A DNA stretch of 64,000 bases. Origin: Blasia pusilla. Its lineage: Eukaryota. A program made the translations under genes and the position numbers. Below are positions 2,533 to 55,423 of the stretch, in pieces. Location of the stretch: contig CM114271.1 of the NCBI GenBank assembly GCA_050084515.1, positions 41,292,001 to 41,356,000 on the forward strand, in the 5' to 3' direction. The stretch's first letter is position 1, and every line of letters starts with the position of its first letter. The notes beneath the pieces are model-generated. The model searched no databases and had not been told where the DNA came from. It saw only the letters and a program-made list of their open reading frames with translations.

Positions 2533-3515
2533 CTATGATGCTAGTACGTAGGAGCTCTGATCCACAACCTCCACATTGTCATGGAAATCATGACTATCCC
2601 TCACCTCCTCATTGACCTCTGGATCTGGAGACTCATCATATGAGCCCACCACTAGAATCACCACTTGTTGCTGATCTGACATAGTCAACCAACAAAGAAA
2701 GGCAGATGCATGCCAATTGGGCACCATCTCCTCATCACTATCTCCATGCCATCGAGCTCCAATGTCGTCTCTCTAACTTGGGCATGGGTTGCGTCTCAAC
2801 CTATTTGTATCCTGGTTCACTCAATGTGGCCTATGAACCACCTCAAACTCATACTCATGTAGTAGTAGAGCCTACCTAGCAAGCTTCCTCGTAAGGTTTT
2901 CGGACTCCATCAACCACCTCAATGGCTGATGAGTGATAAGTGTGAAAGGGTTGTCGAATAGATAGCACCTGAAATGTGCCATGATCCACACTACAGCCAA
3001 GCACTCTCCCTTGTAGGAGCTATACTTTGCCCTTGGAATGTTATTCGATCGGCCCGCATAAGCGACAACAAACTTCCTCTCCACATCATCTCTCTAAGTG
3101 AGCACCACTCCTAGACCCAACATTCTCCAACTATATGTAACTTGAATGGAAGACCACTAATTGGTCTATGTAAAAGGGATGAGGACGTGAACCCATTCTT
3201 GAGCTCTTGAAATTCTTGCTCTTGGTCATCTTCCCAATGCCAAACTGGATCAAGTCTCATCAGGAAGGTTAAAGACTTTGCAATCGCACTAAAACCCTTG
3301 ACATACTATCGATAGAAGTTCGCCAGTCCCAAAAATTCTTGGACTTGACTTACATCTGTAGGGCGTGGAATTTACGCAATAACCTCCACCTTCATCTATT
3401 GAACACCCAACCCATCTGGGTATATGGTGTATCCTAAGTACTTTATCTGCTCCTGAAAAAACTTGCACTTGCCTGGATGTAACTTAAGTCCATGTAACTA
3501 CAATCGTCTAAAGAT
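2533..3515 (-). mobile_element. Inverted fragment of the same Ty3/Gypsy family (RT end and RNase H)
   Basis: Minus-strand ORFs FVVAYAGRSNN...YKGECLAVVW...HQPLRWLMES and MVPNWHASAFLCWL match the plus-strand copies. Confidence 0.88.
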
Positions 3516-4299
3516 TTACCCTCTTAGAAGAGTGACTTGGTTGAGTTCTATTCTTAGAGAGTTTCAAGAGTCTGATTTGAAATGGTTATTTGGGGAGACT
3601 TATCGTCTTAGGGGAGTTTTTTCATACTAGTGATAATGCATGATTTTGGTTTATTATTTTCCCAATGAGAGTGGATTACTCTTCTTGGGAGAGAAACTCC
3701 GACAAATTCCATTTTTGAGGAGAGTAGAGAATGTCCGTTAAGTATGGATAGGGATGGAGCATGAGTCGTACCCGATTTTCCTTAATTCGTACCACGTCAA
3801 GGTTCTCTTTGTAGATAGGCACTAGTTTACTCGCTATCTAATTTACCACTTTGGGGAGGCATTTATGAACCTGGTCATGCAATCCCCAACTCCGGTGATT
3901 CTTCTTATTAACACATATACAAGGATATGGGATTGTAGTTTGTATGTCCTTGTATAGCGATTCATGGATGTTAATAGGCCTGCTCAAGTAAGGTTTAACA
4001 CTAGTTGTGCTATTTTTCTTGTGAACAAGGGTAAAACAGTTTACAAGGATTTTATAATTAGCAATTTCAGGATTCTAGGTTATGAAGAAGTGATCACCTC
4101 GGCACTACCATTCGTGATTCTTGTGCTAAGAGAATTGAGAGTATATAATAATTATGTATTGAAAAAAGAGAACTTCTTAGAGAGTTCATCTGCATCAACC
4201 ACATCTACTACAACTAGAAGGTCCACCCTCACTTGAAGAAAATCTTTCGACACGACACCAAAGCCGAGAGAGTCAGGTGACAATCGAGCTTCGGGATTG

Positions 4300-7200
4300 G
4301 AGACGTTGCACCATTGGAAACCACACCCGTTGTGTGCAAGTGTCCAGATAAGGGTGCTAGAGTATTAGATCTCTTTGGAGGGATTAGCATGGGATTGGTT
4401 GCGGTGTTGCAGGTAGGCATACATATCCATCATTAACTTTATGTGGAGAGAGATGAGATCCCACGACGAGTCCCATGGGGTCACGTGCATGGCGAGGTTA
4501 ATCTAGAGATAAGCTTGATCTATTGCCGATATCTGCAATCTGGGATTACCGGCATACATTACCCATCGATATTTTGTTGTTTGGGGCATAGGACCTAGAT
4601 AGAGTTGGTACCATCCATTTGGTGATTTTTGGATGGCCATGTCAAGGTCATTTATTGGCTAGCCAAGGGTTTGGATTGCAGGATCCGAGGTTAGAGATAT
4701 TTTGGGAGACGTTGCGAGTGTTACGATACTTACGGGAGAATCAGACATATTTTTTGGCATACGCTCTAGAGAACGTGCCACTGTTGGGAGATACTCATGC
4801 ACGGGTGATGTTGAGTGTGCTTCAAGTGAGGTGGTGGTTGGGACCTACCGTATTCTTGGATGCGGTGAAAGTTGGATCTCATGCACACCATCCATAATTA
4901 TGGTGGTTAAACTTTCTACCATCAGAGGTACTAAGACGATGAGCTTATGATGGAGTTCAGAGAGCAACACACTTGACAGTGGAAGAGATCTTGAGTCCGG
5001 GTCGTCGGTCTTATGTGGTGACTCGGGATGATATACCATTATTGGCGATAGCCAATAGGGTGGGGAAGTTGAGGGCAGCCTTACCTACTTTGGGGAGCTT
5101 CCCTACATCCCATGCCTTTTGTCAAGGAGGGATTGGCCTGATTTGGGATGTAGAGACATGAGCATTAAAAGAGCCTACTATTGATGAGTGCAACCAAGCC
5201 ATAGGTTTTGCTATAGGTACTACGACGGTGCCAGATGTGACGGAGGCATGTATCGAGGTAGGCGATGGACCTCAACTATCTCACATGGATAGTCAGTCTA
5301 GGTATTTTTGCGTCGAGCGGATGCGAGTGTCATCCACGCCGTCACATCCACAAGTTAGCCCATTGCCTATAGGTTGTGTAGAGCCATTCGCTGGGGGTAA
5401 GAAGAGAAGAGACAAGTACCCATGGACTTCTTGGGACGTCATTTTGAGTAGAGAGTGTGTGCAGAGGTGTGCAGAGTAGCACATGTTCATTTTTCAGATA
5501 TAGATCGATCATGATGTGGGAGGTCAAAGTGGGGTGACTGTAATAAACATGGCTAGGTTTGCTACATAGCAACCAAAGCCGGAGGTTGCATCCTCTTTGA
5601 GTGAGGTCATGATGGAGACTTGGGAGCCTGTAATAGGTCTTGAATTGATAGGAGGAGAGAGATTGTGGATACATAGGTTTATGAGAGGCCATGTGGATTT
5701 TTTGCCTTCAATATGAAAGACTTGGGTACTTTCAAGGGTCCCGGAATACGGATAGATTTGGCTAGTGATACGCCAATCTTTCGTCGACCCTACAATTATT
5801 CAGATATGGAGCGAGCCTTGATTCAGAGTAGGAGTCAGGACTTGTGGGAGGTAACACAAGTGGAGTTATCACATGGGCAGTATGCATCTCCCACAATCAT
5901 GCATGCCGGAAAAGAAGGATATATATGGCAAGTGGACGTGTAATGTACAAGAGTTTCTATTTTATAGTCGTTTTAATAAGTTCGATCCCCAAGAGGATCA
6001 TTGTTTGATGAAAAGAGAGTTAAGAATTACAATTCTGTTGTAATAGTTGTATTACAACATGATGTGTGTGAGTTATATTCAATGTTTTATCAATATCTTC
6101 TGATCTTTCTTAGTACCAAAGGATCTTTCCTCGATTCTCTCTAGTGGAATTGACAGCATGTTTAGGTAGATTTTCCTCTCGACATCAAGAAACCTCACAG
6201 AGATCTCAACACAAAAGCTGGCTTCTCCTACTTTCGAAACTCAATCCGTCTCGGCAGGCTACTCTCTGTCAAACATATTTCCTACAACTCATGTTGATTA
6301 TTTCAGTGATGAGAAAGGTTCGCCTGATTCACTCTTCACTCTGCAGACCCAAAAAGGAGACTCAGACATAAGCATCGCACATCAGAATGAATGAATGATT
6401 GCTTTACTACTCCATCAAGAACGAGAAAGCTTCAAAGTGTATACAAGCTCGAGAGTGTACTACTCTCTTGCTCGGACCATTCCTACAACATAAGGACTTC
6501 GTAAGAGAATGATGATTATGGCTTCTGCCTTGCTTCTTAAATATTCGCTGGAGTGGAAGTGATCCAAAGATTCGAAACGTTCTTGATGAAGCTAGTGTCT
6601 CTTCACTATTTCTAACTACATAGATCTATGGTTCTCTTAGCTTTTCCAACGATCCTTGTGAATCCGCGGTACAAAATTGTCCTAACTACCAATTTGATAC
6701 AAAGGGTCACGCCCTTTCCTAGTCTAACTGTTCTAACTATGTGTCGCTTGAAATCACAGTCCTTCTTAGCTTCGCTTTGCTGGACTTTATGAGGACGAAG
6801 TACTCCATGCTTCGTTCTTACTTCCGGTGCTTCGTGCTTCGTGCAAGAGCGAAGTACTTCTTTCTTCTTTTCTTCGTGATGCTTCGTTATGTAGCAAAGC
6901 ACTTCAAAGATAGAGCTTCGTACATCTTCGTTTAACTTCGTTAAACTTCGTTCTGAGTCTTGAGACTTCGTTATTGTGTTTTCCTCTCCTCTAAGGCAAA
7001 TCCTTGATCTTCCATCTCTTTGCCTTGTCTCAGGAGCTTCGTGATTCACTCATTCTTCATAATAATAAAAAATAATCATAATCAAAATCATAATATACAA
7101 GAGTCTTCGTTGAATAAAAAGATATATTCTTCAAGAGTACAAAATTGTGGGTATCACAGGACGGATAGGCAGATGTGTGGAAATTACCATCCTATCAACC

Positions 7201-7548
7201 CACAGAGGAGGTTAGATCGGTACGCCATACCTATCCCCAAGGAGATCTTTGATGCAATAGGGCATGCAAAGATCTTCGCTACTTTAGATTTTCGTTTTGG
7301 CTATCATCAACTTTCTATTAGGATGGAGGACAGAAAGAAGATAACATTTGGGGGGATAGATCGATTTAGGAGAGATTCTTTATATCACTAGCAGTTCTTA
7401 CCATTTGATTTGAAGAACCCCTCTGCGGAGTTCTAGAAAGTGATGGATAGGATTTTGGTTGGCTTGGATTTTGTATGGTGTTACATAGATGATATTCTTA
7501 TCTTCACTTCCACGGTTGAGAAGCATGAGTGACGCTTAGAGGAGGTGC
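4300..7548 (+). mobile_element. Ty3/Gypsy fragment with C5 DNA methyltransferase domain followed by RT, interrupted by a solo LTR
   Basis: LDLFGGIS at about 4365, WPCQG at about 4634, ENV at 4769; RT start GIRIDLASDTPIFRRPY; RT resumes TDRQMCGNY at 7162 and reaches CYIDDILIF at about 7480. Confidence 0.88.
5939..7158. mobile_element. Solo LTR (1220 bp) of a different LTR family inserted into the RT
   Basis: Starts TGTAAT and ends ATCACA; flanked by a perfect 5-bp TSD GGACG (5934-5938 and 7159-7163); the RT reading GKWT/DRQMCG is continuous once it is removed. Confidence 0.9.
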
Positions 7549-8049
7549 TCTCATTGGAAGAGCAAGCAAGCAAATTCCATCCACTCAATAGCAACAAAGG
7601 AGACTCAAGAAATGAAGTAGAAGGTGATGAACCTTCCTTTTAATATTCTCACGGGATCCACAAGAATACAAAATAGGGCTAATGTTTTCTTGTGCCACAT
7701 GGCTTCCTCTCAAGGCTTAGCCAATCTCATTTTGACACAATTAGATTACATGTTATCTCCTCCAAAATATTTTCATCAACTTACTTCATATCCTCCAAAC
7801 TACCCCAACTACCCTATCCACTAACCAAGACTACTTTTTTTTTTCATTAATACACTAATCCCACTACTTTACTTTTATATTCACATGTCTCATTTATTAC
7901 CTCTTTTCCTAAAGTTGGGCCCGCATAAACGAGCCAACCTTAAGAGGTTTAAACATCTAAATTTCATTTTCCTAAGCTAATTTACTTACTAATAAAACTC
8001 TCTCTAACACATCATGAGAGAGAAGTATACATAGTAGGTGATTTTACTA

Positions 8050-9570
8050 TACGACACCAGAATAAAGGCACGACTCAATGCGTGCCTCACGAGGTCATTT
8101 GCACTCCTCTGCAACTCACGCCTCGTACCCCACAATGGTGAAGATGTCTCAAAAATATGGGAAGAGACATTGAGCATTGTGTGTCTCTCCTAGGGACTAT
8201 CCACTATTGGGATGTCCTTTGCATGTGTGTTCACCGTATCTCTCACTTATCAACCACCCCGTCCCACAAACTGTACAGATAATTGACTCATCCGACCATC
8301 ACCTAATCGACACCTTGGCCGATAGGCAACGATCTCCTCCCAAAAATCAAGGATGAAGCCTAAGGGATATAACACAGCACTCCCTACCAAAACATCGTAT
8401 GACTCATTTGATGTCATGATCACACGTGTGCCTACCATAGCACGATTCGTCGTGTGTTCTGGCTGGACTTTGACAATTATCTCCTGTCGAGTCATATACT
8501 ACGTGGGTGACACACCCCCACTAGAGGTATGTATCTGGAAGGGACAAGGCTTAATGTTGCCTTTTTGTAACCCCAACAAAAGACACGCCGTCAAGTGTCT
8601 TTGGAAGCGCAACATTAGGAGTTGCGCTTCCAAATCAAGTAGGACGCGTTGTGGGTGGTACACCATACCTGTGGGACTAACCAAATGAAAAACTCTAGCT
8701 TGGTTATCCAACAACATCATACTTGGTGTTACCATGGCTTGCTCTATTGCTAGCCTATCTAGCATATCTACCAACTTGGCCGTTGCAGCATGCCATAATT
8801 GAGTGGAGGATGTCCCAAGCACCTCCTCTGAGGGCAGGTCCACCACCTCATGAAGAACCACCTCTAAACGAGAGGCAATCACCTCACCTCACCACACTCA
8901 CATAATGTGGTGGGTAGCCAAAACACCTCCGCCAGTAAAACTCCTATAGTCTCCAACTTCATGGCAAAAAGCAAAAGAGCCTAGCTCATCCTAGTGGCCA
9001 TCTCCAACAACGTGGTTGACACTAGCTCCACCCAAGCCGGCATAGGAGTTGCCTCTCCAACCCACGTGACCTCCATGCACTTGCCTCACCTGTAGGCACT
9101 ATTGATTGTTGAGGCACCATTGATGCTAACTAAAGTGCCTCTGACAATGTAAAGGACTATGGAACCCTATCCTACTGCCCATCGGTCCCCTCTTGTGGAT
9201 CGATCTCCATCCCATCTCTTGGTGGCTCAGTCATTCTCGGAGCACCTTGAGTCACTACTCCAGCAACCTCTACCTAAGATGCACTACACATAAATTCCAT
9301 ACCAAAGAAATCCTCACCCGTATTGTGGTAAGAAGTGGAGGCCCTACCCAACGTAGATAATCTTGGGTTCGGCTCCATCCCTAGTTGTATTATTGTCACG
9401 ACCGCAATCCTATACTCCAACTGATCGATGCATGCACCTCCTATGCACGCGCTCCATCTCCTCTAGCAGTTGGTGGACCTCGACCACCTCGACCAAATCC
9501 TTTGTGACCCCCATCCAGACGACTGTTTCCAGCGGTGGGCCTACCTCTCGTCAACGTGCCTCGCGATGAA
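8050..9570 (-). mobile_element. Degenerate gag/aspartic-protease region of a Ty3/Gypsy element
   Basis: VYHPQRVLLDLEAQLLML resembles the retropepsin LLDSGA site, followed by ESYDVLVGSAVLYPLGFILDFW (DxLxG-type motif). Membership of the DNMT family is inferred, not shown by contiguity. Confidence 0.65.
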
Positions 9571-9599
9571 GATCGAAACACCAATTTTTAGTGTGACCA

Positions 9600-11410
9600 T
9601 TTTGATGGCAATAGTCACACTATAATTGGGGGGGCATTCTAGCTGGTTCCTGAGCAATCCGAGGCGTCCATGGCCCTCTACAATGCTATGGGTATTCCGT
9701 CTGCCTATGGGTCCCACCACACATCCAATAGAATATCATGTGTCCCTACTACCTAGGGTTCGATCATTGCCTTATGGGCTCACGATGCCCGCCCTGCTCT
9801 TTGAGCACATGGGCGCGCTTCTGTGGTACTGGTGTACGTTGGAGCACCTATGGATTACTGCGACTTGCAAACCTGTTGATTCTTGGGAAAATCTTGTGGT
9901 CACCACCTAATCCTCACTCATGTTGAGCTTAAGCCGATCAAAAAACTCAAACATCACCTTCAACGTGGGCTTCGCTGTGTGAAGCAACATTGCATCACGA
10001 ACTCTTCATAGTTCTCGGGAACTTCGTACTCATTCACTCCATATGTGGCAATGATTAGTCATCGGTGCATCCTAGGTGGCTCCCGAGCAATCAGAGGCGC
10101 CCATGGCCCTCTACCATGCTATGGGTTTACCTTCGGTCCCACCACACATCCAATAGGCCATCACCGATCCCTACTGGGCAACACACGTCGAAAGGGGTCG
10201 TTGCCTCATCGGCTCACAATACGTGCCTTGCTCTTTGAGCACACTGGCCCGCTCTTGTGGTACTAATACATGTTGGGGCACCTATGGGGTTATTGCAACT
10301 CGTAAACTTGTCAACTTTCGGGAAAATCTTGTGGTCAGCACTTGCTCCTCACTCATGTTGAGCTCAATCCGCTCAGAAAACTCGAAGACTACCTTCGGTG
10401 TGGGCTTTGCTATGTGAAGCAATATTGCATCTCGGACTCTTTATAGTTTGCGGTTGTCACATCTGGGTAGCCGATAGGCCGAGATCTATAGTGGATAGGG
10501 CGTAGGAGCCAGCGGACTATCTCGAGTGTAACTTTGTCCCAGTGTGTCGGATGAGGTTAAGGATAGGTCCATTGTGTCAAGAACGTTGTTTCTGATAACT
10601 TTCATGTTGAGGTCTTTCACATCCGGGTGACTTGTTGATGAGGTCACCCGCCTCTGGTAACCTGTGCGCGTAGGTTACCAAGGGGAGGGCTATTTTTAGG
10701 GGAAGAGCCAAAAGGCTCTTCCCAACCCTATATAAGAGAGGAAAATGGCTTTCCTAAGCCATCTTTCTCATGTTGGGCCATTGGAGCACCTCTCTTGTAT
10801 GTTTTTGAGATAGGACTAGGGTGCTAGCATCCGGATTCCTTGATAACACAGGGTGGACGAGGCTCGATATGCCGATGTAGATTGAGGAGTGGAGTTTTAG
10901 GCCGGATGTGCTGTTTTTACTACTCTTTATTTTTACATGAGAAAGATGTCAGGGGGTGGTGGGAATTCGTTGTTTGCACGTAGGCAAGCGAGTTGCCTTG
11001 GTCAGGAGCCCCTAGAGACGCGTGTGTTGCAGATGTTGGTCATTTTTTGTTTGGAAGGTCGTGGGCGGAAGCGCTGTCCATTTTTCTCAGATTTTTGGCA
11101 AGTGCGGATTGATAAGGGACATAAGCTAAGTGTAGCAGAAAGTGTGGCGTCGGGTGTACGCGAGTGAGGGTGTCGGAAAAGAGCAGGAGGCGGCCGAGTC
11201 GCGGGGGCGGCTAGAAATTAGGTCGCAAAGGCGGCCGGAGGTTACTCAGGGCGCGGACGATGGGCATGGACATGCGGTGATGGCCCCCCCCAAGTTGGGG
11301 AGGCCCATAGGGGTGCAGGCCAGCCCCCCCTCCGCATTTATATCTCCCACCCCCTTTTTTTGGACATGGTTGGCGCCTACCACGCAATGTGGTAACTGGG
11401 TCAGGCGTAA
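9600..11410 (+). mobile_element. Probable LTR/5' leader of the Gypsy family, with a ~430-bp tandem duplication (about 9600-10020 and 10040-10450)
   Basis: Two diverged copies of GAGCAATCMGAGGCGYCCATGGCCCTCTAC. 10021-10060 matches 17690-17730, and 17648-17680 matches the post-PPT sequence at 2490-2525. TATATAA at 10729. Homologous to the minus-strand copy at 19000-19490. Confidence 0.6.
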
Positions 11411-14400
11411 GTGGTAGCAATCAAGGAGGGTGTTAGGGTGTTAGATCTCTTTAGAGGGATTAGCATCGGATTGGCTGCAGTATTGCAAGCGGGCATGCGG
11501 GTGCATCAGTACCTTTATGTGGAGAGAGATGAGACCGCACGGCGAGTATCATTACGTCACGTGGCGAGATTGGTCCAGAGGTACCCTGAGTTGATGCCGG
11601 TTTTTGCAGTACGGGGATATCAGCATACACTTTCCGCCGACATCTCATTGGTGGGGGCGCAGGATCTGGATAGAGTTGGCACCATTCATTTGGTGATTGC
11701 TGTATGGCCATGTCAAGGTCATTCATCACCTGGCCGAGGATTTGGATTGCAGGATCCGAGGTCAGGGATGTTTAGGGAGATGCTGCGAGTAGTATGACAC
11801 TTGCAGGAGAGTCACACATGTTCTCCAACGTACATTTTGGAGAACGTGCCGTTGTGGGGAGACACTCATGCAGGTGTGATGACGAATGTGCATCATGTGA
11901 GGTCCTGGTTGGGACCTGTTGTGTTGTTAGATGCAGCGAGAGTTGGATCATGTGCCCATCGTCCACGAATGTGGTGGACGAACCTGATACCATTAGAGGT
12001 ACTCAGTCGAGCATACGATGGAGTCCACGGAGCACCACATCTCACAGTGGATGCTATTTTGGGCTCAAGGCGTCGATCTCAGGTGGTGACATGGGATGAT
12101 AGACCACCGTTGGCCATGGCCAATAGGGTGGGGAAGTTGAGGGCAGCCTTACCTACGTTGGTGAGCTTCCCATGCCTTTCATCAGGAAGGGCCTGGCATG
12201 ATTTGGGATGAGGTGACCAGAGCATTGGAGGAGCCTTCAGCAAATGAGCGCGAGCGCGCCATGGGGGTTTGCTGGCGGTGCCAAGAATGACTGAGGCATC
12301 GCGGAGACAGGTGTTGGGGCAAGCGATGGACCTCAACTATCTCACATGGATAGTCAGCCTAGGTATGGCTTAGCAGAGACAGATGCGAGTGTCATCCATG
12401 CCGTCATGTCCACAAGTTGGACCATTGCCTACAAGATCTGTACAGGCATTGGTTGGGGGCGAGAGGAGGAGAGATGGGCACCCATGGACTTCATGGGACG
12501 TCGTTCGAGCAGAGAGTGCGAAGGCGTCCAGAGTAGCACATGTTCATTTTTTGGATGTGCAGCATGGTATAGGAAGTCAGAGTGGAGTGGTTGTTGCGGA
12601 GGTGGCTAGGGTTGCTACATAGCAACCAAAGTCGGAGGTTGCGTCCTCTCCGAGTGAGGTCACGATGGAGACTTGGGAGCCTATGATAGGTCTCAAGTTG
12701 ATAGGAGGAGAGCGACGGCGAGTTCATAGGTTTCTCAGAGGGCATGTTAGTTGTTTTGTCTTCAGTATGAGAGACTTGGGTACGCTGAAGGGTCCCGGGA
12801 TACAGATTGAGTTGGCTAGTGATACTCCAATCTTTTGTCGACCCTACAAGTATTCCAATATGGGGCAAGCCTTGATTCAGAGCAGGAGTCAGGACTTGTT
12901 GGAGGCAAGGCTTGTGGAGTTATCACATGGGGAGTATGCATCTGCCACAGTCATGCCGGCGAAGAAGGATATGTATGGCAATTGGAAGGATAGGCGAATG
13001 TGTGGAGATTACCGTCCTATCAACCGACAGACGAGGTCAGATCGGTATGCCATGCCTATTCCTGAGGAGATCTTTGATGCGGTAGGGCATGCAAAGATCT
13101 TCAATACTTTAGATCTCCGTGCTCGCTATCATCAGCTTCCTATGAAGTTGAAGGACAGGGAGAAGACAGCATTCTGGGGGATAGATCGGTTCGGGAGAGA
13201 TTGCTTGTATCAATGGTGGTTCTTACCATTTGGGTTGAAGAATGCGCTTGCAGAGTTTCAGATAGTGATTGATAAGATTTTGGTTGGCTTGGATTTTGTA
13301 CGATGTTACATAGATGATATTCTTATCTTCAGTTCCACGTTTGAGGAGCATGAGCGACACCTGGAGGAGGTATTTCGGCGATTGCAGTTACATGGACTGA
13401 AGTTATATCTAGGAAAGTGCAGATTCTTTCAGGAGCAGATTGAGTATTTGGGACACACCATATACCCAAGTAGGTTAGGCGTTCAGCAGACGAAGGTAGA
13501 GGCTATTGCACAGATTCCACGGTATGTCAAGGTTTTTAGTGCGATCGCAAAGTCTTTGACCTTGTTGACGAGACTTGATCATGTTTGGTTGTGGGGAGAT
13601 GATCAGGAGCGAGCATTTTAGGAGTTCAAGGACAGGTTGATGTCCTTACCCATTTTTCTGAGAGACGGTTAGGGTCGCCCATTCCAGTTACATATGGATT
13701 GGAGCATGTTGGGTCTAGGAGCAATGCTTACCTAGAGGGATGAGGAGGAGAGGGAGTTCGTTGTGGCTTACGCAAGCCGATTGAACAACATTGCAGAGGC
13801 GAAGTAGAGTTCCTACAAGCAAGAAAGCTTGGCTACAGTCTGGGCCGTGGCACATTTCAGGTGCTATTTATTTGGCGACCCTTTCACACTTATCACTGAT
13901 CATCAGCCGTTGAGGTGGTTGATGGAGTCTGAAAAGCTTACGGGAAAGCTTGCTAGGTGGGCTCTATTACTACAGGAGTATGAGTTTGAGGTGGTTCATA
14001 GGCCAGGTTGGCTGAACCAGGATGCGGATGGGTTGAGTTGTAACCCATGTCCGAGTCAAAGAGATGACAGAGGAGCTCGATGGCACGGAGAGAGTGATGA
14101 GGAGATGGTGCCCGGTTGGCATGCATCTGCCTATCTTTGTTGGTTGACTATGGCAAGTCAGCCACAGTTGATGACTTCAATGGTGGGGTTGGATGATGAG
14201 TCTTTGGATCTGGAGGTCAGTGAGGAGGCGACAGGTGGTCGTGATATCCATGACGACGTGGAGGTTGTGGAGTTCTTGCGCACTGGGGTACAGCAGTTTG
14301 TGGCCATATGTATGGTATGTGACAAAGTGCGAGCATCCTTCAATGCTCACACTCTGCAGTTGCATCCTTTGCCGATTATGGGTTTAGGTTATCGGTGGAG

Positions 14401-15560
14401 TTTAGACTTTGCGGGACCTTTGCCATTGACGAGGCGTCATCATAGGTACGTGTTGGTCATGGTGAAGCATTTCTCCAAGTGGATAGAGTTGGTGGCACTA
14501 GCGGACAAGGTGAGCGAAGGAATAACTTATGCGTTTCTAGATCGTGTGCTTAGTCACTTTGGTGCACCGGCGGAGGTGTTGACTGACCAGGGTACCGAGT
14601 TCAGGGGAGAGTTTCAGGCCTTGTGTGATCAGGCGCTGATAGATCACCACACCACGTCCAGAGATCATCCTTAGGCGGATGGGTTGGCGGAGAGAGTGGT
14701 ACAGACGGTGAAGAGAAGATTGCGAAAGTATAGCTTGTAGCGGGGACAGTTGAGGGAGTGGGACCTACAGTTGCCATGGTTGGCTATGGGTTATTGCTTT
14801 AGTGTGCAAGCATCCTTGGCGTCATTTTCACCATACTTTTTGCTCTTTGGGAGAGAGCCAAATTTACCTGCAGCGATTCGACGTGACATGGCAGAGGTGT
14901 TAGATCTTGATGATCCAGATGTGTGGGTACAAGCATGTTCTCAGAGGGCGGAGGTTTGTTGTAGAGTTATGCCTATGACCTTTGAGAACTCAGCTATTGC
15001 TCAGCATAGAGATACATTGAGGTACGCGACCATTCGTGGAGGAGGTTATCGTCCAGGGATTAGGAGGTTTCATCCTGAAGATTACGTGTATTTACAGCAG
15101 GCGGCACCCACGACGCTAGATGTCACTGCAGGGCGCACGATCCTACGTGTGCGCGAGGTATTACCGACCGGAGTCCTCATGTTGGAGGAACGGGATGGTA
15201 TGGTTTGGAAGGATCATGTGCACAATTGTGCACCATGTAATCTTTGCAACGTAGATGGGACAGTGGATCCGAGCTTGGCAGTGGTACCTGCAGGCTTGAG
15301 GTGTATGTTGCGCGGATCTGTGAGGGATGCAACCATCATGTTGGTATGTGATGGTTGTTCTCGAGGGTGGCATATGTCATGTCTGACCTTCCCTCTTGAT
15401 GTGGTTCCCACCGGATGATGGATGTGTCCGAGATGTGTATAGGGTAGTAGGTCATGTCAGAGAGATGTGATATTTTCTATCTGGAGTTGGGGGGATCCAA
15501 CTGCGAGCTAGGGGGGCGGTTGTGTAATCTCCATGTATATGTATGAGTTGATTTTTTTAC
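11411..15560 (+). mobile_element. Most complete DNMT-RT-RNaseH-integrase-PHD Ty3/Gypsy copy (internally deleted pseudogene), with PPT
   Basis: DNMT motifs I, IV, VI, VIII, IX and X at 11441-12331; RT ORF 12665-13621 (RMCGDYRPIN, LDLRARYHQ, LPFGLKNA, YIDDILIFS); RNase H and integrase 13829-14674 (TDQGTEF); PHD 15302-15442; PPT at 15506-15519 then TG at 15521. Confidence 0.93.
11423..12380 (+). pseudogene. Retrotransposon-borne DNMT3-like C5 cytosine methyltransferase domain
   Basis: VRVLDLFRGIS (motif I), YLYVE (II), DI, VIAVWPCQGHS (IV, catalytic Cys), ILENV (VI), DAARVGSCAHRPRMWWTNL (VIII; compare DNMT3 AAHRARYFWGNL), ERERAMG (IX), RRQVLGQAMD (X). Confidence 0.9.
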
Positions 15561-15619
15561 ATGTGTGGATCAACCCATGTGTGGGGAAGATCGGTGTTGT
15601 ATGGTGTTGCGGTCTTGCA

Positions 15620-17740
15620 TTGGACCGGCGGTGTTGTTGGCTTGCGTGCACATCATCCACGCTTGTGGTGGACAAACTTGTTGCCTAGGGAGGTTCTACG
15701 TCGAGCATATGATACAGTGCAGCGGGATCCTTGCCTTACAATGGATAGTATCTTGGATACTGGGCAACTTTCTCAGGTGGTGAGGGTTATTGATCGGTCA
15801 CCCAAGGCAAGGGTGAACCGTCTGGGCCAGCCTAGGATGACACTATCCACATTTTTGAGTTTTCCCTTGTCACATGCCTATAGGGAAGGTGGTCCCGGGC
15901 TTGTATGGGATTCTCATGTGCGACAGTTGGTGGAGCCTAATGCTGATGAGAGAGAGCGTGTGATGGGATTTGCTACTGGTGTGATAGCGATTGCTTCCAT
16001 TTCTGAGGCTTCACGACGTCATGTGTTGGGTCAGGCCATGGACCTGAATTGTTTGACTTGGATTTTGAGTCTTGGTATGGCCGAGCAGCGTCGACTTCGG
16101 ACTATGTCTGTGGGTCTTCCACCCCTTGTAATGAGCTCGATGGCTACCATGACAGTAGAGGCATCGGTTGGGGGCGAGGAGAGTAGTATTTTGCATCCTT
16201 GGAGTAAATGGGATGTAATGGCTGGGCATGTGGAGTTGGTTGCTCATGCTGGTGGAGGAGTTATTTGCTCAGATGATGGTGTAGCTAAGGGTGTACCATC
16301 TTGTGAGGGGATTGCGTAGCAGCCAATGGCATCGTCCTCTCCCTCTAGTGTGCTAGTGGAGGAGACTTGGGAGCCATTACTTGGGCCCAAGCTTACGGGA
16401 GGTGAGAAACGACGCTTGACACAGTTCCTACATGCTTATAGGAGTTGTTTTGCCTTTAGCATGAAGGAGTTGGGTGCTCTGGTTGAACCCGGTATACGGA
16501 TTGATTTGGCTAGTGATACGCCAATCTTCCGTCATCCCTACCGATATAGTGATATGGAGAGGGACATGTTTCAAAGTAGGACGTTGGACCTTTTGGAGGC
16601 TAGATTAGTGGAGTTTTCGCATGGAGAGTATGCATCAGCCACTGTCATGCCTCCTAGAAAGGATATGCATGGCAACTACACGGATAGGCGAATGTGTGGA
16701 GATTACCGTCTTATCATTCGGCAAACCAAGGCCGATAGGTATGCCATGCCTTCACCTGAGGAGATCTTTGATGTGGTGGGACAGGCAAAGATTTTCAGTA
16801 CTTTGGATCTTCGGGCAGGATACCATCAATTGCCGATTCAAGAGAGTGACAAGGCCAAGACAGCATTTTGGGGTGTCAACTCTCATGGCAAGGATTGTTT
16901 GTACCAGTGGAAATTCTTATCCTTTGGATTGAAGAATGCACCTGCCGAGTTTCAGAGAGTGATGGACAGAGGCTTCACATACCTCCGATAGTATGTTCGC
17001 CAATCCCTTCATAGTACATACCTCCGATTAGTGCTATGGCAAAGCCTTTGAACCAATTGCTGAAATCAGATCAAGAGTGGCACTGGGAAGATGATCAGGA
17101 GAGAGCTTTTGTGGAGCTCAAGGCCCAATTGGTGGCGGTGCCTATGTTGAGGAGACCTATGAGAGGGCGCCCATTTCAGTTACACACTGATTGGAGTAGG
17201 TTGGGACTTGGAGCGGTGTTGACACAACATGATGATGAGCACATGGAGTTTGTGGTGGCATATGCAAGTCGTTTGAATTATGCAGCGGAGTCGCGCTATA
17301 ATTCATATGAGGGAGAGTGCTTGGCAGTAGTGTGGGTTGTGGCACACTTTAGGTGTTACTTTTTTGGCATACAATTTACCCTTGTTATTGATCACCAGCC
17401 GCTCAAGTGGTTGATGGAGTCTGACAAGCTTACAGGGAAGCTTGCACGGTGGGCTCTTATCTTACAGGAGTATGACTTCCAGGTGGTACATAGACTTGGA
17501 GTTGCCAACCTTGATGATGATGGGTTGAGTAGGAACCCATGTACTAGTGAAGAGAATGCAATTGGGGCTAGATGGCATGGCGAGGTTGATGAGGAGATGG
17601 TGCCAGGTTGGCATGCATCCGCCTTTTTATGTTGGTTAGGGGTGGATATATGTTGTGTAGCGATATGTATGTGCACGACACGGTCTAGAACTCCGCACTC
17701 AATCACTCCATATGTGGCAATGATCAGTTGCCACATGCGG
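15620..17740 (+). mobile_element. Diverged subfamily copy: DNMT C-terminal half, RT, RNase H, then an LTR fragment
   Basis: AHHPRLWWTNL, EPNADERERVMGF and RRHVLGQAMD in ORF 15561-16319; RT ORF 16326-16991 in the same frame; RNase H 17036-17640 (FQLHTDWS, EGECLAVVW). Confidence 0.9.
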
Positions 17741-18278
17741 TTGGACGCCTCTCTTAGACTTTTAACTAATCTCCACTGAAACTCCTATAAACTCTTCAGC
17801 TTGTTGGTTCCCACAACCTGGTAGCTCCAACCATGGATGGGAGTTGGAATGGTTCCTCATTCTAATTAAACCCCTCAATACATCACTCCACTTCGTGTCA
17901 CTCCACTACCACTGCTCGCACTATCCCGTTCTTTTGAACCGTGGAAGAATGCCGTGATGAAAACCTTGTCTCACACGCTCGAGCACTGAGACTCACCAAG
18001 AATCTCCCACACTCCTCACTAGTTCACTAATGCTAATGCTAATATTGTTATGACACACCCGGCCTCACGCACACTTAACACTTGGGCTTACCGTGAGCCT
18101 CTCCAAGAAGCTCACCTAAGCTATTGACACTCTCTCGGGTCAAACACGTGACCACTACTCGGGAAATCTCCATGTTTCCACAAACATGCTATACATGCAA
18201 GGATTCTACACTTGTCACCATCACTACACTTGGCTAACCTAAGCTCTACTCGATACCCAACACCCTCAATGACACTAG

Positions 18279-18349: not shown

Positions 18350-19490
18350 CTTTGTGTTGCACGTTCAGCACTAACTACTCCATGTGGTACAACTACCTCT
18401 ACGACACGACAATCTCCTCGAGCAGCATATCGAATCTTTCCTCAACGGATGCAGACTACTCGTCGGCATTGGCACGTGAATTAGAGTGGGTGGGTCTATC
18501 AGGCCTGCGCAGCAATGCCCCTTAATTGCCCGCACTACCCAGGCACTCCTCTCGGTTGCGGCTTCCGTCCATCTGTTCCTTCTCTCCCAACTCGACTTCT
18601 CACGGTGCTCGTCTCGACTTTCGGCTTGGCTTGGCTTCAACTTACGGCCCGTAGGCCCATGCGTCCTTCATCATTTTGTCTACTCAACCACGTTAGACCT
18701 AAAATCTATGACCTAAAATGTGACAAGAGACCTAAACGACTACCAAGACCTAGCCGAGTTTACTCAATAGCCTCCCGACGCCTAGAAGACCTAAAGCTCC
18801 TTCTCTTCTCTTTCTCGACACTCGACATTCGCCACTCACCCGTCAATCCCACACTCTGCACTAAATTTGAGTGTCATTCCCCGACACTCTACTACAACCT
18901 TACGTTAGTTTGCACCAACAAAACATGAGAAAACAGAGAGCGCTTCCGTGCACGACCTTTGATTTAATGAAAAATGATAAACCCACACACCAACGAACGT
19001 CTCCTGGAGCTCCCCACTGAGGCAACTCACTTGCCTACCTGAATACAATGAATTTTCCCTTGCCCCTAGACATCTTTCTTACGTAAAATCAGAGTAAAAA
19101 TGACTCATCCAGCCTAAAACTCCATTCATGAATCTAGATGGGCATATCGAGCCACATCCATCCTCCGCTATGAGGGAATCCGGACGCTACCATCTCTCCC
19201 TCTCTTATAGCCTCTTTTGGGAGGAAGAGCCTTTTTGGCTCTTCCCCCCAAAAATAGCCTCCAAATGGTAACCAACGAGCACAAGTGACCATTGACTTGG
19301 TCAATGGGTCACATGGGCAGAAATAAAAAAGAAGGAGAATTGTCATAAATGACATTCTTGACGCAACACACCAGTCATCAATTAACCTCATCCGACACCT
19401 TAGGACGAAGTTATACCCAAACCTCCCTTTGACCCTCTATGCCGACGCGGTAGAACTTTACCTGTCGGCTAACTAAGTTGTGCCAGCCAA
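18350..19490 (-). mobile_element. Inverted LTR/leader fragment of the Gypsy family
   Basis: The reverse complement of 19000-19490 aligns by eye with 10470-11050 (GGAAGAGCCAAAAGGCTCTTCC, AGAAAGATGTC, GTAGGCAAGYGAGTTGCCT). Confidence 0.7.
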
Positions 19491-21201: not shown

Positions 21202-24200
21202 CTAAAGGGGAGGCACCGGACAACCGCAAGATGCATGTTCGGGCATGTTCCTCAAAGGACTATGGACTAACGCTTCCGAGGAACAAGAGGAGTGATCAGC
21301 TGATTTGCACCATGGCTTGTTGCAGTTGCCAGTCGCAAAAGTTTTGCCTTGAGGTTTGGCGAGGTGTGAATCTCCAGAGAATGCAATTACTACATCCGAG
21401 GGAGAACTTCCGCTCCCTTGATGTTGAGAGCTACTCGTTGCAGAGCAGGATGCTGGATTTCTCCGTACTAATCGCGATGAACTCCCAGAACTGCCCATCT
21501 CGCAGCAAGTCATCGACGAAGCACTCTGCGCAGAGCCGCACAAATGACCGATTGATGGCTCGAGAGTGCTCTTGAAGCCATGGTTCATATCCTGGGTACT
21601 GTGTTCTTGTTCATGATCAGATCTGTTGGCTTCTCCTGTACATTTCTTGCTCGAGCAGCACTTTTGCTCAGAGTTGGTCCCAGGGCAACTTTCATCGGCG
21701 TTTGGAGAATTTCCTACACTGATGAGGCGGTTGCACTTGGTAGTATCTGGAATGATTCCTGAAGTACATTTCTTGCTGACCTCTAGTGAAACTGAGCAAC
21801 ACTTCGTCTCTGGGCCTGCTTTTGAGCTGGGTGCCGGACAACACTTTTTGCCTGATATGCCCAAGTCTAAACCAGATTTTGAGCTGCAAGTAGGTCCCGA
21901 ACGACATTTCATCTCGGGAACTTTTGAATCTGGGGAACGCTCGGTCTCAAAACGAGGTTTGGATCCAGAACAACACTTTTTTTCAGTAACCTTGGAATCC
22001 GAGCAAAGTCTGCTCTCCACATCACTCGTTGAGAGGCAGGTGGTTGTTTTGCAACACTTTTTCTCAGGATTCCTAGGATCTGAGTGCTGCATCGTCTCTA
22101 AACTGGGTCTTAGGCAGCATTGAGTGCTCAGTCCCAGTTCTGATCCGGCGACCATTTTTCGGGGGACTTTAAACGAGCTTCCAATGTCTTGGTTTGCTAC
22201 TGTGCAACACTGTTTGCCTCGACATGACTCTGATCGTTCGTACTTTTCCCTCAAATCATGGCCATAGCTATTCTGTCGAAGCGGCCAGCAGGTAACCCTC
22301 ACTCTGTGATGATCGTGGTCTTCTCCATCATGCTTGTGGTCACTACTGCCATATTTTCCTGTCTCTTGGTCATTCTGACCGAGTTCGTGTTGATGAGTTT
22401 GCTGGCAATGATTATGACTATGACTGTGATGCGCATGTTGTTGGTGTTTCTTCGATTCGAATTTAGGCAAAACAACACCCACTTTCCTGTTGAGCAGACG
22501 CATACTGTTGAATATCACCACCAAGCACGTTCCAACGTCGGCCAGCACTGCCGCCCAAAGGGATGGGTATCCTGCTGCAGCAATAATGATGATGGCGATT
22601 TTCGTGAAGAAGGAGAAGGACACATTTTGTATTATCTTTCTTCTGCAATCCCTTCCCAATTCGATTGCCACAACCAGCTTCCGCAGATCGTTTGTCATTA
22701 GGGCTATGTCCGCTGTTTCCATAGCAACTGCGGACCCTGCAACGCCCATTGCAAGTCCAATATCGGCTACGGCCAAAGCTGGTGCATCGTTGATGCCATC
22801 TCCCACCATTGCTGTAACTCCGGTCGGCTTGAGATCCTTTACGAGATTAACCTTATCTTCGGGTAGGAGCTCAGCATGAACTTCTATGTCACCAAGCTGG
22901 AAACATATCACCAGAATGCCCGGTTAGGACTGAAAATACCATGCTACGACAGATTTTGCAACCTAAGGTTATTTGGTGAACGTGAGTAACTTGGTTATAA
23001 AGGAGGACTAGGCGCCCATACCTTGTTATGGACAGCTGTAGCCGCAAGTTCACTGTCACCCGTGAGCATGACAACACGCACCCCCATATTCTATCAACAA
23101 CAAATAGAACAATCAGAAATTTCTTTGAAGGAATGCGAAATCTTGCGCAGGACAAGGAGGCTTCATAATCACTGAACCTTAACAAATCCATGTGGACTTG
23201 ACTTCGCTCTTCTAATCACACATTATAGGGACCGTCAACTTACCTTAAGACTTGACACTGCCTCGGCTGCTTCAGGTCGAACTGAATCAGCTACTGCAAA
23301 AATGCCTATCGGTCGCCCGTCGACAGCAACCCAGCCAACGGTGGCGCCCTGACCACTCCACTGGTCCGAGATTCCAACGTTTATATCTACGATCCGAGAA
23401 GATACTGTGGTAAGTTTTCTAAATTGTGGGAGATCATCTCATCTGTTTGTAAGTTCCAATACCCACTGGTAAGTAGATATATACACTAGCCTCGACATCT
23501 GTTTACAAGTTACAGACACATTTGCCGGACCAGAGAACCCATGGATATGACAAATTACCACACTGAGTCCTTGTCTGTTCGTGAACGATGCTTTATCAAA
23601 CGAGAGAGCAAACTTTCAGCAATTCCACATCCTTTTTCTACTCGAGACAGAATGGCGTACCTTGAACACCTTTCAGGCGTGCAGCCAAACGAGCATTTCC
23701 TATCTCCACCTTTTGATCATCAACTACTGCAGATACTCCCTCTCCTGGTATGATCTCAAAATCTGTGGTATCGCCGTATGGTTCCACCCCATGAAGGCGT
23801 GCATATGAAACAAGTGCTGGTGCTAATGGGTGGCTAGATTTGTTTTCGACACACGCAATCCTGGAGACGTCACACATCAAAAGAGTCTTAGACAGTGATG
23901 TGTTTGATGTACACGTACACATTTGCTTCTCCCCTTAACCAGCGTCACTTTGGAAAGGTAGGAAACCAGGAACAGGGCATCATGGTTGGAGATGGAGTCA
24001 TCCATAATCCAATCATGTTCCGTTCAGGAGAAAATTCACAGACCTGGAAAAGCTGATAGTTAAATTTAAGTGGTAGATTACCGCATTATGCCCGACTTTC
24101 GTCACTTCTGGTCTCCGGCATCGTTAGACAAGTATAACTTTTCTTTAGTATGATATGTTTCATTCTCGAATTACATGAAACATACCAGTGTAAAATTTGT

Positions 24201-27200
24201 CGGTTATTCGTGGTGCCGTCGATTGCATGGACGTCTAAGACTCGGAAGTGACCCTCAGTCAAGGTTCCAGTCTTGTCCATCGCCACCACCTTCACCTTTC
24301 CTAGTGCTTCTAAGTAGCCACCTCCCCTGACAATTAGTCCTGCTCGAGCAGCCTGGGCAATTCCACATGTCGTTGTCACAGGGGTAGATATCACCAATGC
24401 GCAGGGGCAGGCCACCACAAGCAGAACGAGGGCTAAATACACCCAGTGCTTGGGATTATGAACACCCGAGGCCCATGGTATGACTGCTATTAGCACTGCT
24501 GAGGCCACAATGACTGCAAAACATAATTTAGAACATTAGAGTGGATTCTGCATGAGGGTAGCTGGGTAAGATTGGAGATGGATCATAAATGGAGCTACAA
24601 GTAGTCAACCTCTAAGTCTTGGAAGCAAGCACACCTCTCGGGGAATTTTAACCTAGGTCTATAGAATCTGCAGCCATTGCTTTCTTGGCCGAAACCTGAA
24701 TGCCAAGAGGCACGCAGGGCCATGCTTTTGAATGTCTTGACTTTCCACGTTATGCAGGGAAGGAGGACGTTGAAAGGATGCACAATGTTGACAAAATTTA
24801 GGGATATATGAGTAGTTGAACCCACTTGGAGTGTAAAATTTTGCGACTTTCTCAACCAGCTGCTCTGTAGGGGAGTGCTGATTTTGAGCCTCTTCAACGA
24901 GCCGCACCATCCTGGCAACGGCTGAGTCTTCAGCCAGAGCTGTAGTCCTGACTGTTATGTAACCTAAGAAAGACCACAGAGAGAAAGACTGGTAAGAACG
25001 GGTGGAAATTATTTGTTAGTTCATCCAATCATTCGCTTTGTATGTCATATTGTCCAACCATTCATAAGCTCATGCCAAATTTCCATATACCTGAAAGATT
25101 CATCGTGCCGGCCCACACCAAATCTCCAGCAGTTTTCTCTACAGGCTTTGATTCACCTGTTACATTGCTCTGATCTACGGAACTCTTGCCTGATATCACT
25201 TCCCCATCAATTGGAATGAGCTCTCCTGCTTTCACAGCGAGCGAAGTTCCAATACTAACATCCTCCACGGGAACTCTCTGACCATCCATCAGAACAGCGC
25301 TCTGGGGTGCGAGATCAGCCACACTTGATATTGCCTGACGAGCCTACAATAGAAGTAAGCGCAAACACAAAGAGATCAGATGAACCCATACGTCTTACTT
25401 ATATGGAGGACGAAGGCAGACTAGTTAGCTTAGCTCAACGTCACAAGAAGTCGTGAGGTTACTTCTACTTCTCTTTTGAAGTAAGTTCTGCCGATCTTAC
25501 AACAATCAAGGCAGCGCTTTACCTTATCACTAGACCTGGATTCTAACCAGTCTGCAAGGGTAAATAAGAAGGCGATAGAGCCTGCCTCCAGGTAGTCTCC
25601 TAATGCGATTGCGCCACCAACTGCACATGCACGTTGCAAGGCTCAGATTAAAGACCATAATCAATTTCACTGAATTTCTCTTATTCCCTCCTTAGCCTTG
25701 ACTCGCAACGAATCTATCAACTTTGTTAATGACAAACAACAACACTACACGTTTGGGCTGTCCTTGAAACTTGTCGATCTACAGAAAGCGATTAGTCGGT
25801 AAGTCTCATCTCATCGTTTAACCTCGACCAAAAAATAAAGCAATAGGTTGGTACTGTTAAGGTATTACTATCCATTAACCGAAGTAAGAGACTTCACACC
25901 CAATCAGGGGTTTTTCAAGACTCTTAGGATAATGCTGCCATGCGCATTTTAATACGGCGATGACGCTGTACCTTGTGCTGCTCCAACAAACGGATGGGAA
26001 CCCTACCCGAGATACACTTTAAGGAGATAATTTTGTTGACAGGGTGCCCCGGCCCATGATCTAGGTTCGTCAAAACAAACACAACTTCCAACTGAAATGA
26101 TTCAAATTTTCGTATCCCCACAATTGAACAAATCGAAGGTTGACGATTCCACTTGCCTGCTATAAGCATAAGGCAGTTGATGTCTAACACCAATCTGCGT
26201 AAAGCCACCAGACTACGGGCGATTATTGGAGGAGCACCAACAGCGACCGAGCCGAGAGCTACCCACTTCAAAGGCTCCCAAATATAATGAAAGAAAGCCA
26301 CACAAATCAGAAGTCCCGAGCCGATGGTCCATGGACTCGGCCATTTGTGCGTTGCCCTCCCTTTGCCACGCTGGTGAATAGAAGCATCCAACCTGGCTTC
26401 ATTCAAGATTTTGACTGGTACACGATCACAAATCCAATGAAGGTTAATAAAAAATTTTGATCTCTTCCCGAAGAAAAGTTTGCACAATGTTTCACTGAGC
26501 ATCAAAACATGCGATCCACTTTATGAAGGTTACTAACAGAGAAATTCTATGGTTCAAGCGCAGAGGTTGCCCACGCTTGCCCCTTCACCAATGGGCTACT
26601 AATAGGACTGAGTAGATTTGAGAGACGAACTCACCAATTTGTACATCGGACACAATTTTTGGATCGTGGACAACCATGACCGTCTTAGAGGTCGCATTAA
26701 CGTGTACTTCTTCGACACCAGGTAATGGCTCCAGGATCTTTTTTATGAGGGGAACCTCAGAGGGACAGCAAATTCCCATGACGTCGAAAGTTGTCTTAGC
26801 CACCCCCTGACCTTTGAAGCCCCTCGGTATGGTCATCTTCACCATTTCTTCCGGAGGTACCTGCGCCCTAGGAGAAGCCAAACTTACGCATCCATGAGAG
26901 GGCGAATTCCTGATAGCAATGATACTTTGGTCACTCGGTGTGTTCTCGTCTGTAGTCGGGAGACTTTCATAACCTTTCCTTTTCGGTACCTCGTAGGTGA
27001 ACAAATTAACTAGCTGCTTAGGCCTTCTCTTCAACTGGCCGAGAGACTCGCCAACTTTAACAAGCCTCCCATGTTCAATGAATTGGGAGCCGCCTTCAAC
27101 AGATTCCTGCGCATGACTCAAGACATACGACCCATCCTTTAGAGGTATGAGCCAGTCGTAGTGATCACCATGAGCTATCTTGTTGTGGCCACATCCATCC

Positions 27201-50351: not shown

Positions 50352-55423
<5,072 letters not shown>

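Follow-up and report, generated by a model that had tools for sequence, protein, structure and literature searches.

A 64,000-nucleotide stretch of the Blasia pusilla genome (GenBank assembly GCA_050084515.1, contig CM114271.1, positions 41,292,001 to 41,356,000 of the forward strand) very probably holds a set of decayed and truncated copies, some of them rearranged, of a single Ty3/gypsy-type retrotransposon family whose coding sequence includes a DNMT3-like C5 cytosine methyltransferase (DNMT). This whole stretch is called the window below, and all positions are counted from its first letter. The copies of the window are dead and do nothing. Their relatives in other genomes and in metagenomes carry the methyltransferase in front of a conserved in-frame stop codon, upstream of the reverse transcriptase (RT).

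Results

Methyltransferase sequence precedes reverse transcriptase in the window

A tblastn search of the window with P0057, a Marchantia gag-protease-DNMT protein of 1278 amino acids (aa), located DNMT sequence at five places, all on the + strand (4293-5440, 11426-12568, 15636-16262, 33207-33581 and 38935-39479). RT follows downstream of four of the five pieces (at 5570-5922 plus 7161-7583, 12623-13621, 16320-16991 and 39926-40195), the piece at 33207 being the one without RT behind it. The first three pieces, which belong to copies 3, A and B, share 50-67% identity with P0057, the pieces at 33207 and 38935 only 35-39%. Judged by these identities, at least two DNMT subfamilies are present within the window.

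In copy A, stop-to-stop open reading frames (ORFs) on the + strand of 11411-15442 encode, in this order, a C5 methyltransferase, RT, ribonuclease H (RNase H) with the integrase core, and an integrase C-terminus with a PHD finger. The remnant of ORF1 (11411-12619) comprises a DNMT3-like domain with motifs I to X and a linker up to the ORF1 stop. It is 58% identical to residues 879-1261 of P0057, is truncated at its 5′ end and lacks gag and protease. The methyltransferase motifs follow one another in canonical order and without introns, with motif I at 11441-11473, motif IV (WPCQGH) at 11705-11722, motif VI (ILENVP) at 11834-11851, motif VIII at 11954-11983, motif IX at 12146-12172 and motif X at 12314-12337. 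The two methyltransferase ORF pieces of this copy lie in one frame with one stop between them; premature stops were found at 11795, 12209, 12245 and 12371, together with an out-of-frame patch at about 12211-12290. An in-frame TAG at 12620-12622 on the + strand (context TAG CAA CCA), a candidate leaky stop, lies between the DNMT-bearing ORF and the RT ORF. The pol region (12623-15442, + strand) consists of RT (12623-13621), RNase H with the integrase core (13808-14674) and the integrase C-terminus with the PHD finger (14741-15442). It is broken at 13621-13808 and 14674-14741, and a stop at 15416 falls inside the PHD finger. Pfam matches were RVT_1 (6.6e-26), RT_RNaseH (1.3e-17) and rve (4.6e-13), and the PHD finger gave a weak match (1.2e-4, 22.5 bits) under the gathering score of 24. 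The PHD region closes with a TAG stop (15440-15442), and its last base, 15442, is probably the end of pol.

The DNMT of copy 3 (4293-5440, + strand) retains motifs I, IV (4634-4651), VI (4766-4780), VIII and IX and has acquired five stops and one frame change. Over 4351-5936, this copy is 76.8% identical to copy A at the nucleotide level. Its RT (5570-7583, + strand) is split into the two pieces named above by about 1.2 kb of unrelated, AT-richer sequence (5937-7158). Copy B begins with the C-terminal half of the DNMT (motifs VIII-X) and the linker (15603-16316, + strand; 67% identity to P0057 residues 1051-1258), a 5′ truncated segment free of internal stops, and passes through an in-frame TAG at 16317-16319 (+ strand, context TAG CAG CCA) into RT and RNase H (16320-17779, + strand; RVT_1 3.3e-11, RT_RNaseH 6.5e-33), where it is truncated at the 3′ end. 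The more distant subfamily is represented on the + strand by a C-terminal DNMT fragment with six stops (33207-33581; 39% identity to P0057 residues 1126-1242) and by a second C-terminal fragment that together with its RT fragment spans 38935-40195. Copy 1 (1-2207, + strand), cut by the window start, contains the RT C-terminus, RNase H, integrase and a PHD finger, the latter with a PF00628 match over the cut-off (2.4e-7, 31.1 bits). Both copies that span the catalytic site, A and 3, keep WPCQGH and (I)LENVP. Every copy in the window is broken or truncated, copy B being cut at both ends.

A first-pass annotation of this DNA, made from the letters alone, had described a Ty3/gypsy family, DNMT in five pieces of which four are followed by RT, at least two diverged subfamilies, intronless motifs I, IV, VI, VIII, IX and X in order before the RT, PCQ and ENV in both copies spanning the catalytic site, and exclusively dead copies. 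The tblastn matches and motif coordinates given above bear out this description, as do the Pfam matches of copies A and 1 and of the intact relative L057 described below. That the copies are dead is seen in their stops, frame changes and truncations.

A conserved in-frame stop separates the two ORFs of the element

P0057 contains gag (CCHC), aspartic protease and DNMT in a single ORF, and a further relative, P0060, continues beyond the DNMT into RT and RNase H. Metagenome contigs contributed 80 loci, two of them intact (L056 and L057) and 58 with a usable RT start. In L057, an ORF1 of 1369 aa with aspartic protease and PF00145 is followed by a TAG and, in the same frame, by an ORF2 of 1047 aa with RVT_1, RT_RNaseH, Integrase_H2C2, rve and PHD; the junction in L056 is the same. 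As its intact relatives show, the element consists of an ORF1 for gag (CCHC), protease and DNMT, an in-frame stop, and an ORF2 for RT, RNase H, integrase (H2C2 and rve) and PHD, and the pieces found in the window match this plan. The domain order is that of Ty3/gypsy elements, with RVT_1, RT_RNaseH and rve in copy A and the full set of protease, RT, RNase H and integrase in L057. A PHD finger on the integrase is always present in the integrase-bearing forms of the family.

The in-frame stop is conserved at a fixed place between the DNMT ORF and the RT ORF. DNMT and RT share one frame with a single TAG between them in copies A and B of the window, and the TAG column is invariant in an alignment of copies A, B and 3. 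In 49 of the 58 metagenome loci, the first in-frame stop upstream of RT (TAG in 34, TAA in 15) was followed by CAA or CAG; the remaining nine have a different, nearer stop upstream of RT. The hexamer behind the stop in the 49 loci was CAACCC in 42 cases, CAACCA in two, CAGTTA in two and CAATCA in one, compared with CAACCA in copy A and CAGCCA in copy B. A third codon of the form YYA was found in copies A and B and in five of the 49 loci (L030, L033, L056, L057 and L060). UAG-CAR-YYA is the read-through context of the tobacco-mosaic-virus type in plant viruses, and gammaretroviruses express gag-pol via read-through of a stop codon. The family resembles these systems in that a single in-frame UAG separates the upstream ORF from RT and has CAA or CAG directly after it, and is unlike the plant-virus context in that most of the metagenome loci read CAA CCC.

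The methyltransferase domain is DNMT3-like

As judged by profile comparison and a predicted fold, the domain is DNMT3-like, not DRM-like or bacterial, and closest to DNMT3 among solved structures. When the sequences of all PDB chains were searched with a profile built from 16 family members, DNMT3A, DNMT3B and DNMT3C scored from 3.4e-16 to 3.5e-12, tobacco and Arabidopsis DRM from 2.5e-9 to 1e-6, M.HaeIII 7.5e-6, and DNMT2 and M.HhaI about 1e-4. For a family member of 368 aa, AlphaFold gave a confident model from a 24-row alignment, with a pLDDT of 88.7 and a pTM of 0.88. When this model was compared with the PDB by Foldseek, every listed match through rank 50 was DNMT3A, B or C (E 1e-20 to 7e-17), with target TM values of 0.81-0.86 for chains of the methyltransferase domain and 0.41-0.56 for longer chains with several domains. 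Unlike in DRM, the motifs follow a linear order. The catalytic C and E and other residues were invariant in alignments of 11 to 24 diverse family members. The C5-methyltransferase profile PF00145, with a gathering score of 22 bits, matched ORF1 of L057 with 51.1 bits. PWWP and ADD were not found in this ORF, in which Pfam finds protease and PF00145 only; these reader domains are not defining for the DNMT3 catalytic class, and the DNMT3 domains published from other transposable elements likewise occur in differing surroundings. For P0001, the protein atlas returned generic PF00145 clusters only (one streptophyte and two viral) and was uninformative.

One of the relatives, P0028, is labelled as part of a Candidatus Obscuribacterales metagenome-assembled genome (MAG). 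In the DNMT tree, it and the DNMT of L057 are almost the same (branch lengths 0.03 and 0.04), and the label is therefore most likely a binning error that concerns a mis-binned eukaryotic fragment. A bacterial origin of the DNMT, prompted by this label, was ruled out by the same near identity to a retrotransposon.

The methyltransferase has evolved under constraint similar to that of RT

Ratios of nonsynonymous to synonymous substitutions (dN/dS) were calculated between window copies by the Nei-Gojobori method. The comparison of copy A with copy 3 gave 0.38 and 0.45 in the DNMT, 0.48 in the linker behind it and 0.25-0.47 in RT, and that of copies A and B gave 0.18 in both DNMT and RT. Pairs of RNase H and integrase segments ranged from 0.07 to 0.50. 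Because the ratios of the DNMT are similar to those of RT, the methyltransferase was a selected part of the element, constrained as much as RT, during the divergence of its lineages. The higher ratios in the closer copy pair fit neutral decay after insertion.

Checks along the lines suggested in the first-pass annotation support its reading: the domain matches a C5-methyltransferase profile (marginally in copy A, clearly in L057), ranks with DNMT3 in profile and fold comparisons, and has been under purifying selection like RT. The data do not show the opposing scenario, in which intact members lack the domain and the DNMT pieces derive from a host DNMT3 gene and evolve neutrally.

Relatives in bryophytes and a second architecture in green algae

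The named bryophyte relatives comprise about 20 annotated proteins of Marchantia polymorpha and proteins of Calypogeia fissa, Sphagnum species, Riccia sorocarpa and Marchantia paleacea, with 50-65% identity to the window copy; the identity of the window copies to Calypogeia reached 77%. A profile search of 1.84 billion representative sequences returned 662 clusters at E≤1e-30. As the profile also spanned the flanking gag-protease and pol regions (1187 positions), not every cluster need hold a DNMT; among the 150 matches listed of the 662 clusters, the best-matched stretch lay in or overlapped the DNMT part of the profile in all 150.

Trees were calculated from 169 DNMT domains with FastTree and from 61 domains with IQ-TREE (quick), and the two agree on the grouping. 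The 61-row tree left out the Symbiodinium row and the window pieces at 33207 and 38935, and it included 16 random unnamed and three named sequences of the 124 'far' rows. The Symbiodinium row was dropped because rooting of the 169-row tree on it had given an unreliable long-branch root. In the 61-row tree, copies A, 3 and B fall into a 19-row clade (SH-aLRT 100) with Marchantia polymorpha, M. paleacea, Calypogeia and Sphagnum. This clade contains all named bryophyte sequences, and its named members are liverworts and Sphagnum only. It is nested in a 42-row group in which the DNMT lies upstream of RT (protease-DNMT, DNMT-RT and DNMT-RT-integrase-PHD forms), and a Mesostigma protein belongs to this larger group outside the bryophyte clade. 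A separate group (support 99), which includes Scenedesmus and Haematococcus, shows the order RT-DNMT-integrase-PHD; Pfam found RT, RNase H, DNMT, sometimes a G-patch, integrase and PHD in four of its long members. As far as these sequences tell, the combination of DNMT and PHD finger, a writer and a reader, is widespread in green lineages and occurs with two positions of the DNMT that follow the DNMT tree.

High copy number and transcription in the source organism

Raw reads from runs with the same species label as the window were mapped on positions 11000-16400 at a likeness of at least 85%, the DNA reads being about 1% of a Hi-C run and the RNA reads coming from three runs. The depth of DNA reads, summed over both orientations, was 2005-2644 in DNMT bins and 2913-5263 in pol bins, compared with 25 in the neighbouring bin of least depth. 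From these depths, the family is highly repeated, and most of its pol-bearing members also have the DNMT. Upstream of the start of copy A (11424), most genomic reads extend with other sequence, and both DNA and RNA reads extend upstream of the start of copy B (15636) with DNMT-coding sequence.

RNA reads were almost wholly in one orientation in the three runs and covered DNMT as well as pol. In run X19, the depth was 1.2-15.6 over the DNMT of copy A, 14-53 over pol and 51-98 over the DNMT half of copy B, and did not exceed 7.7 in the opposite orientation. Only 13-17 of the 1617-1968 mapped RNA reads per run were at least 99% alike to the window sequence. The transcripts thus come from other copies of the family, and the exact window stretch was not listed in any indexed RNA run.

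Rearranged fragments and other features of the window

Further members of the family lie on the - strand. A fragment with the RT C-terminus and RNase H (2560-3515) matches copy A over 2561-3512 (A:14271-13373), a fragment with gag and aspartic protease that belongs to the same family (8037-10440) aligns with P0057 residues 208-853 by tblastn, and a diverged family member (34368-36905) retains RT, RNase H and integrase. The second RT piece of copy 3 (7159-7546) matches A:12984-13371, and the - strand RT-RNase H fragment starts at the adjacent point, A:13373. The - strand gag-protease fragment, read from 10440 to 8037, stops close to residue 845 of P0057, which is where copy 3 begins. Together with copy 3, the two fragments look like one - strand element whose DNMT-RT segment is inverted. 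This reading, which covers 2561-11100 of the window, places about 0.5-0.7 kb of filler at both joints. A simple inversion that joins the - strand gag-protease fragment to copy A was considered and rejected; it would leave about 28 residues missing between the two and has no other support, and the fragment fits copy 3 better.

A conserved non-coding stretch follows pol in copy 1 (2125-2500) and in a - strand copy (34231-34364) and occurs alone at 63468-63847, with 73-80% identity; it may be part of the 3′ terminal region of the element or of a long terminal repeat (LTR). An inverted pair of sequences (10526-11095 and 18920-19416) shares 70-73% identity. The first arm coincides in part with the place where the N-terminal gag region of the - strand element would be expected, and the second arm lies beyond copy B.

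Other features of the window are the exons of a likely host gene for a heavy-metal P-type ATPase (21202-27298, - strand), with Pfam matches to an HMA domain at 26585-27298 and to the end of a haloacid-dehalogenase-like hydrolase at 21202-22923, and a LINE-like element (53272-55298, + strand) with RVT_1 (5.5e-33) followed by zf-RVT, which is unrelated to the DNMT family. Two dinucleotide microsatellites (50354-50559 and 55315-55425) match each other perfectly, and a tandem array with units of about 350 nucleotides and 84-92% identity occupies 56452-57886.

Discussion

Elements of this type have been published from a charophyte, and the bryophyte members are present, unremarked, in public annotations. 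In the charophyte Klebsormidium nitens, de Mendoza et al. (2018, Nat Commun 9:1341, PMC5890265) described KnitGypsy-Dnmt3, whose Gypsy Pol ORF contains an intronless DNMT3-related domain (Ka/Ks below 0.2) and whose repeats have the arrangement of DIRS elements. Like that element, the family presented here is Gypsy-type and carries an intronless, non-rearranged DNMT3-related domain with the key catalytic residues kept in its coding region, and purifying selection acts on the DNMT of both, with a Ka/Ks below 0.2 in Klebsormidium and ratios of 0.18-0.48 in our comparisons of partly decayed copies. Compared by description rather than by sequence, the two differ in their hosts, as the host clade here is bryophyte-like. 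Here, the DNMT resides in the gag-protease ORF before the in-frame stop, whereas the main text of PMC5890265 speaks of a 'Pol polyprotein ORF'; the integrase PHD finger of our family has no counterpart mentioned in that main text, which also names no bryophyte element. Two later papers of the de Mendoza group use the word 'streptophytes' for Gypsy-DNMT3. In open-access and bioRxiv texts, we found no explicit report of DNMT-bearing retrotransposons in bryophytes, although the supplements of PMC5890265 and PMC12344493 may list them. The first-pass annotation had expected an extension of the system to land plants. This holds insofar as the closest named relatives come from liverworts and Sphagnum. 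As public Marchantia, Calypogeia, Sphagnum and Riccia proteins belong to the family, it is not peculiar to the source genome, and the extension is therefore modest. Judged from the sequences alone, a streptophyte alga as source of the window, which would leave the host range short of land plants, is very unlikely: Mesostigma does carry a related element, but it lies outside the clade of liverworts and Sphagnum into which the three longer window copies fall, and the public bryophyte proteins place the family in land plants independently of this window.

The second architecture, RT-RNase H-DNMT-(G-patch)-integrase-PHD, is found in a 'pol' protein of Scenedesmus sp. PABB004, in a Haematococcus lacustris protein and in many metagenome proteins. 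It shares with our family a homologous DNMT, the same integrase-PHD module and the same type of RT and RNase H, but its DNMT is placed between RNase H and integrase within one long ORF and belongs to a separate clade. No paper describing this type with chlorophyte sequences was found among open-access and bioRxiv main texts; supplements and figures may hold such sequences. PHD fingers as such are described as common accessory domains of Chlamydomonas transposons (PMC8557442). SymbioDIRS-Dnmt3 from Symbiodinium, to judge from the text of PMC5890265 the only transposon-borne DNMT with shown de novo CG activity, likewise carries a DNMT3-type domain in a retrotransposon. Unlike our family, it is of the DIRS type and uses a tyrosine recombinase, and the match to it is weak (E 2.3e-7, to a protein with the Skav prefix). 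Host DNMT3A, DNMT3B and DNMT3C and the plant DNMT3 described by Yaari et al. (2019, PMC6453930) share with the element-borne domain the motif VIII signature and the linear motif order, and DNMT3 is its best profile and fold match among solved structures. The retrotransposon domain differs from these enzymes by an identity of only about 20-23%, by the lack of detectable PWWP and ADD domains and by its embedding in a polyprotein. What our analysis adds is the position of the DNMT in ORF1 before a conserved stop, the constant PHD finger of the integrase, the split into two architectures, the parity of selection on DNMT and RT, and evidence for a high copy number and for transcription in the source organism.

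Several observations weigh against our interpretation or narrow it. With PF00145, the read-through translation of copy A (11411-12340, X at stops) gave only a marginal match (E 4.6e-5, 23.4 bits), and its separate ORF pieces and copy 3 remained below the cut-off (18.3 and 18.8 bits). The assignment to DNMT3 rests on the ranking of solved structures, because the trees were built without host DNMT3, DRM, DNMT1 or Klebsormidium sequences, and no Klebsormidium protein appeared among the named matches of the word-filtered, length-limited database searches. The LTR part of the element's name is not backed by terminal repeats, as none were found around the truncated window copies or in the intact contigs L056 and L057, the metagenome contigs offering only about 1 kb of flank. 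At the junction, the prevailing CAACCC (42 of 49) fits CAR only and not the strict CAR-YYA, which the minority forms match exactly. The RNA apparently is the sense strand of the element, provided that the libraries follow the usual stranded convention. Finally, the Klebsormidium Gypsy DNMT3 domain showed no methylation in yeast in the only published test of activity, a result that its authors call inconclusive (PMC5890265, main text).

How the element would use its enzyme can be sketched from this anatomy. If the conserved stop is leaky, gag-protease-DNMT would be made abundantly and the RT-RNase H-integrase-PHD part rarely, through occasional read-through. The protease would release the methyltransferase within the particle, where it could act on new double-stranded cDNA, or it might act on the DNA of the insertion site. 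The PHD finger of the integrase may tether the integration complex to chromatin with a particular histone H3 state. That the element methylates its own cDNA or its insertion site is a tentative proposal to which we give somewhat less than even confidence; self-methylation of cDNA had already been put forward by de Mendoza et al. (PMC5890265).

An action on host chromatin, around insertions or genome-wide, or on RNA instead of the element's own cDNA is rather doubtful in our view, though it deserves serious consideration. Host chromatin could be turned into a methylated safe haven, or gene-body methylation could be mimicked. The position of the DNMT in ORF1 leads one to expect Gag-like amounts of enzyme, more than a cDNA-bound enzyme needs, and a chromatin reader is always attached to the integrase; RNA methylation and effects on the host epigenome are among the options discussed in PMC5890265. 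For RNA as substrate, the fold and motifs of the domain are a difficulty, since they are those of DNA-acting DNMT3 enzymes and not of DNMT2. It is highly improbable that the DNMT segment is a passenger, a captured piece of a host gene that does not serve the element. Retrotransposons do pick up host sequence, and the main text of PMC5890265 reports no Gypsy DNMT3 with demonstrated activity. However, a passenger would not be expected to show dN/dS ratios similar to those of RT in the same copy pairs, catalytic residues invariant across diverse members, and retention both in the 42-row clade from Mesostigma to bryophytes and, at a different position, in the sister clade. An even weaker case, with practically no likelihood left, is that the DNMT pieces stem from a host DNMT3 gene or from a methylase of bacterial type and adjoin retrotransposons by chance. 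The bacterial MAG label of P0028 might be cited in its favor, but that label most likely reflects mis-binning, bacterial methylases rank far below DNMT3 in the profile search, and four window copies as well as 49 of 58 metagenome loci share the colinear junction of DNMT and RT. The copies in the window are thus best regarded as remains of a retrotransposon family with a methyltransferase of its own.

On a wider scale, one may speculate that a clade of elements with writer and reader predates the split of chlorophytes and streptophytes or spread between them, moved its writer once and persists in land plants. In bryophytes, it would be transcribed from hundreds of copies and supply Gag-like amounts of an enzyme that measurably methylates the host de novo as well as its own copies. 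We consider this scenario as a whole unlikely.

DNA methylation is the main means by which plants silence transposons, and a transposon with a de novo methyltransferase of its own reverses the usual roles. The location of the DNMT before a conserved in-frame stop, the PHD finger of the integrase and a sister type with another DNMT position offer handles on the mechanism. Copies of the family may also confound counts of DNMT genes in bryophytes, as several of them are named 'DNA (cytosine-5-)-methyltransferase' in public records. If such elements prove abundant and transcribed in bryophytes, including the transformable Marchantia polymorpha, the question of what such an enzyme does would move from algae that are hard to handle to a tractable system.

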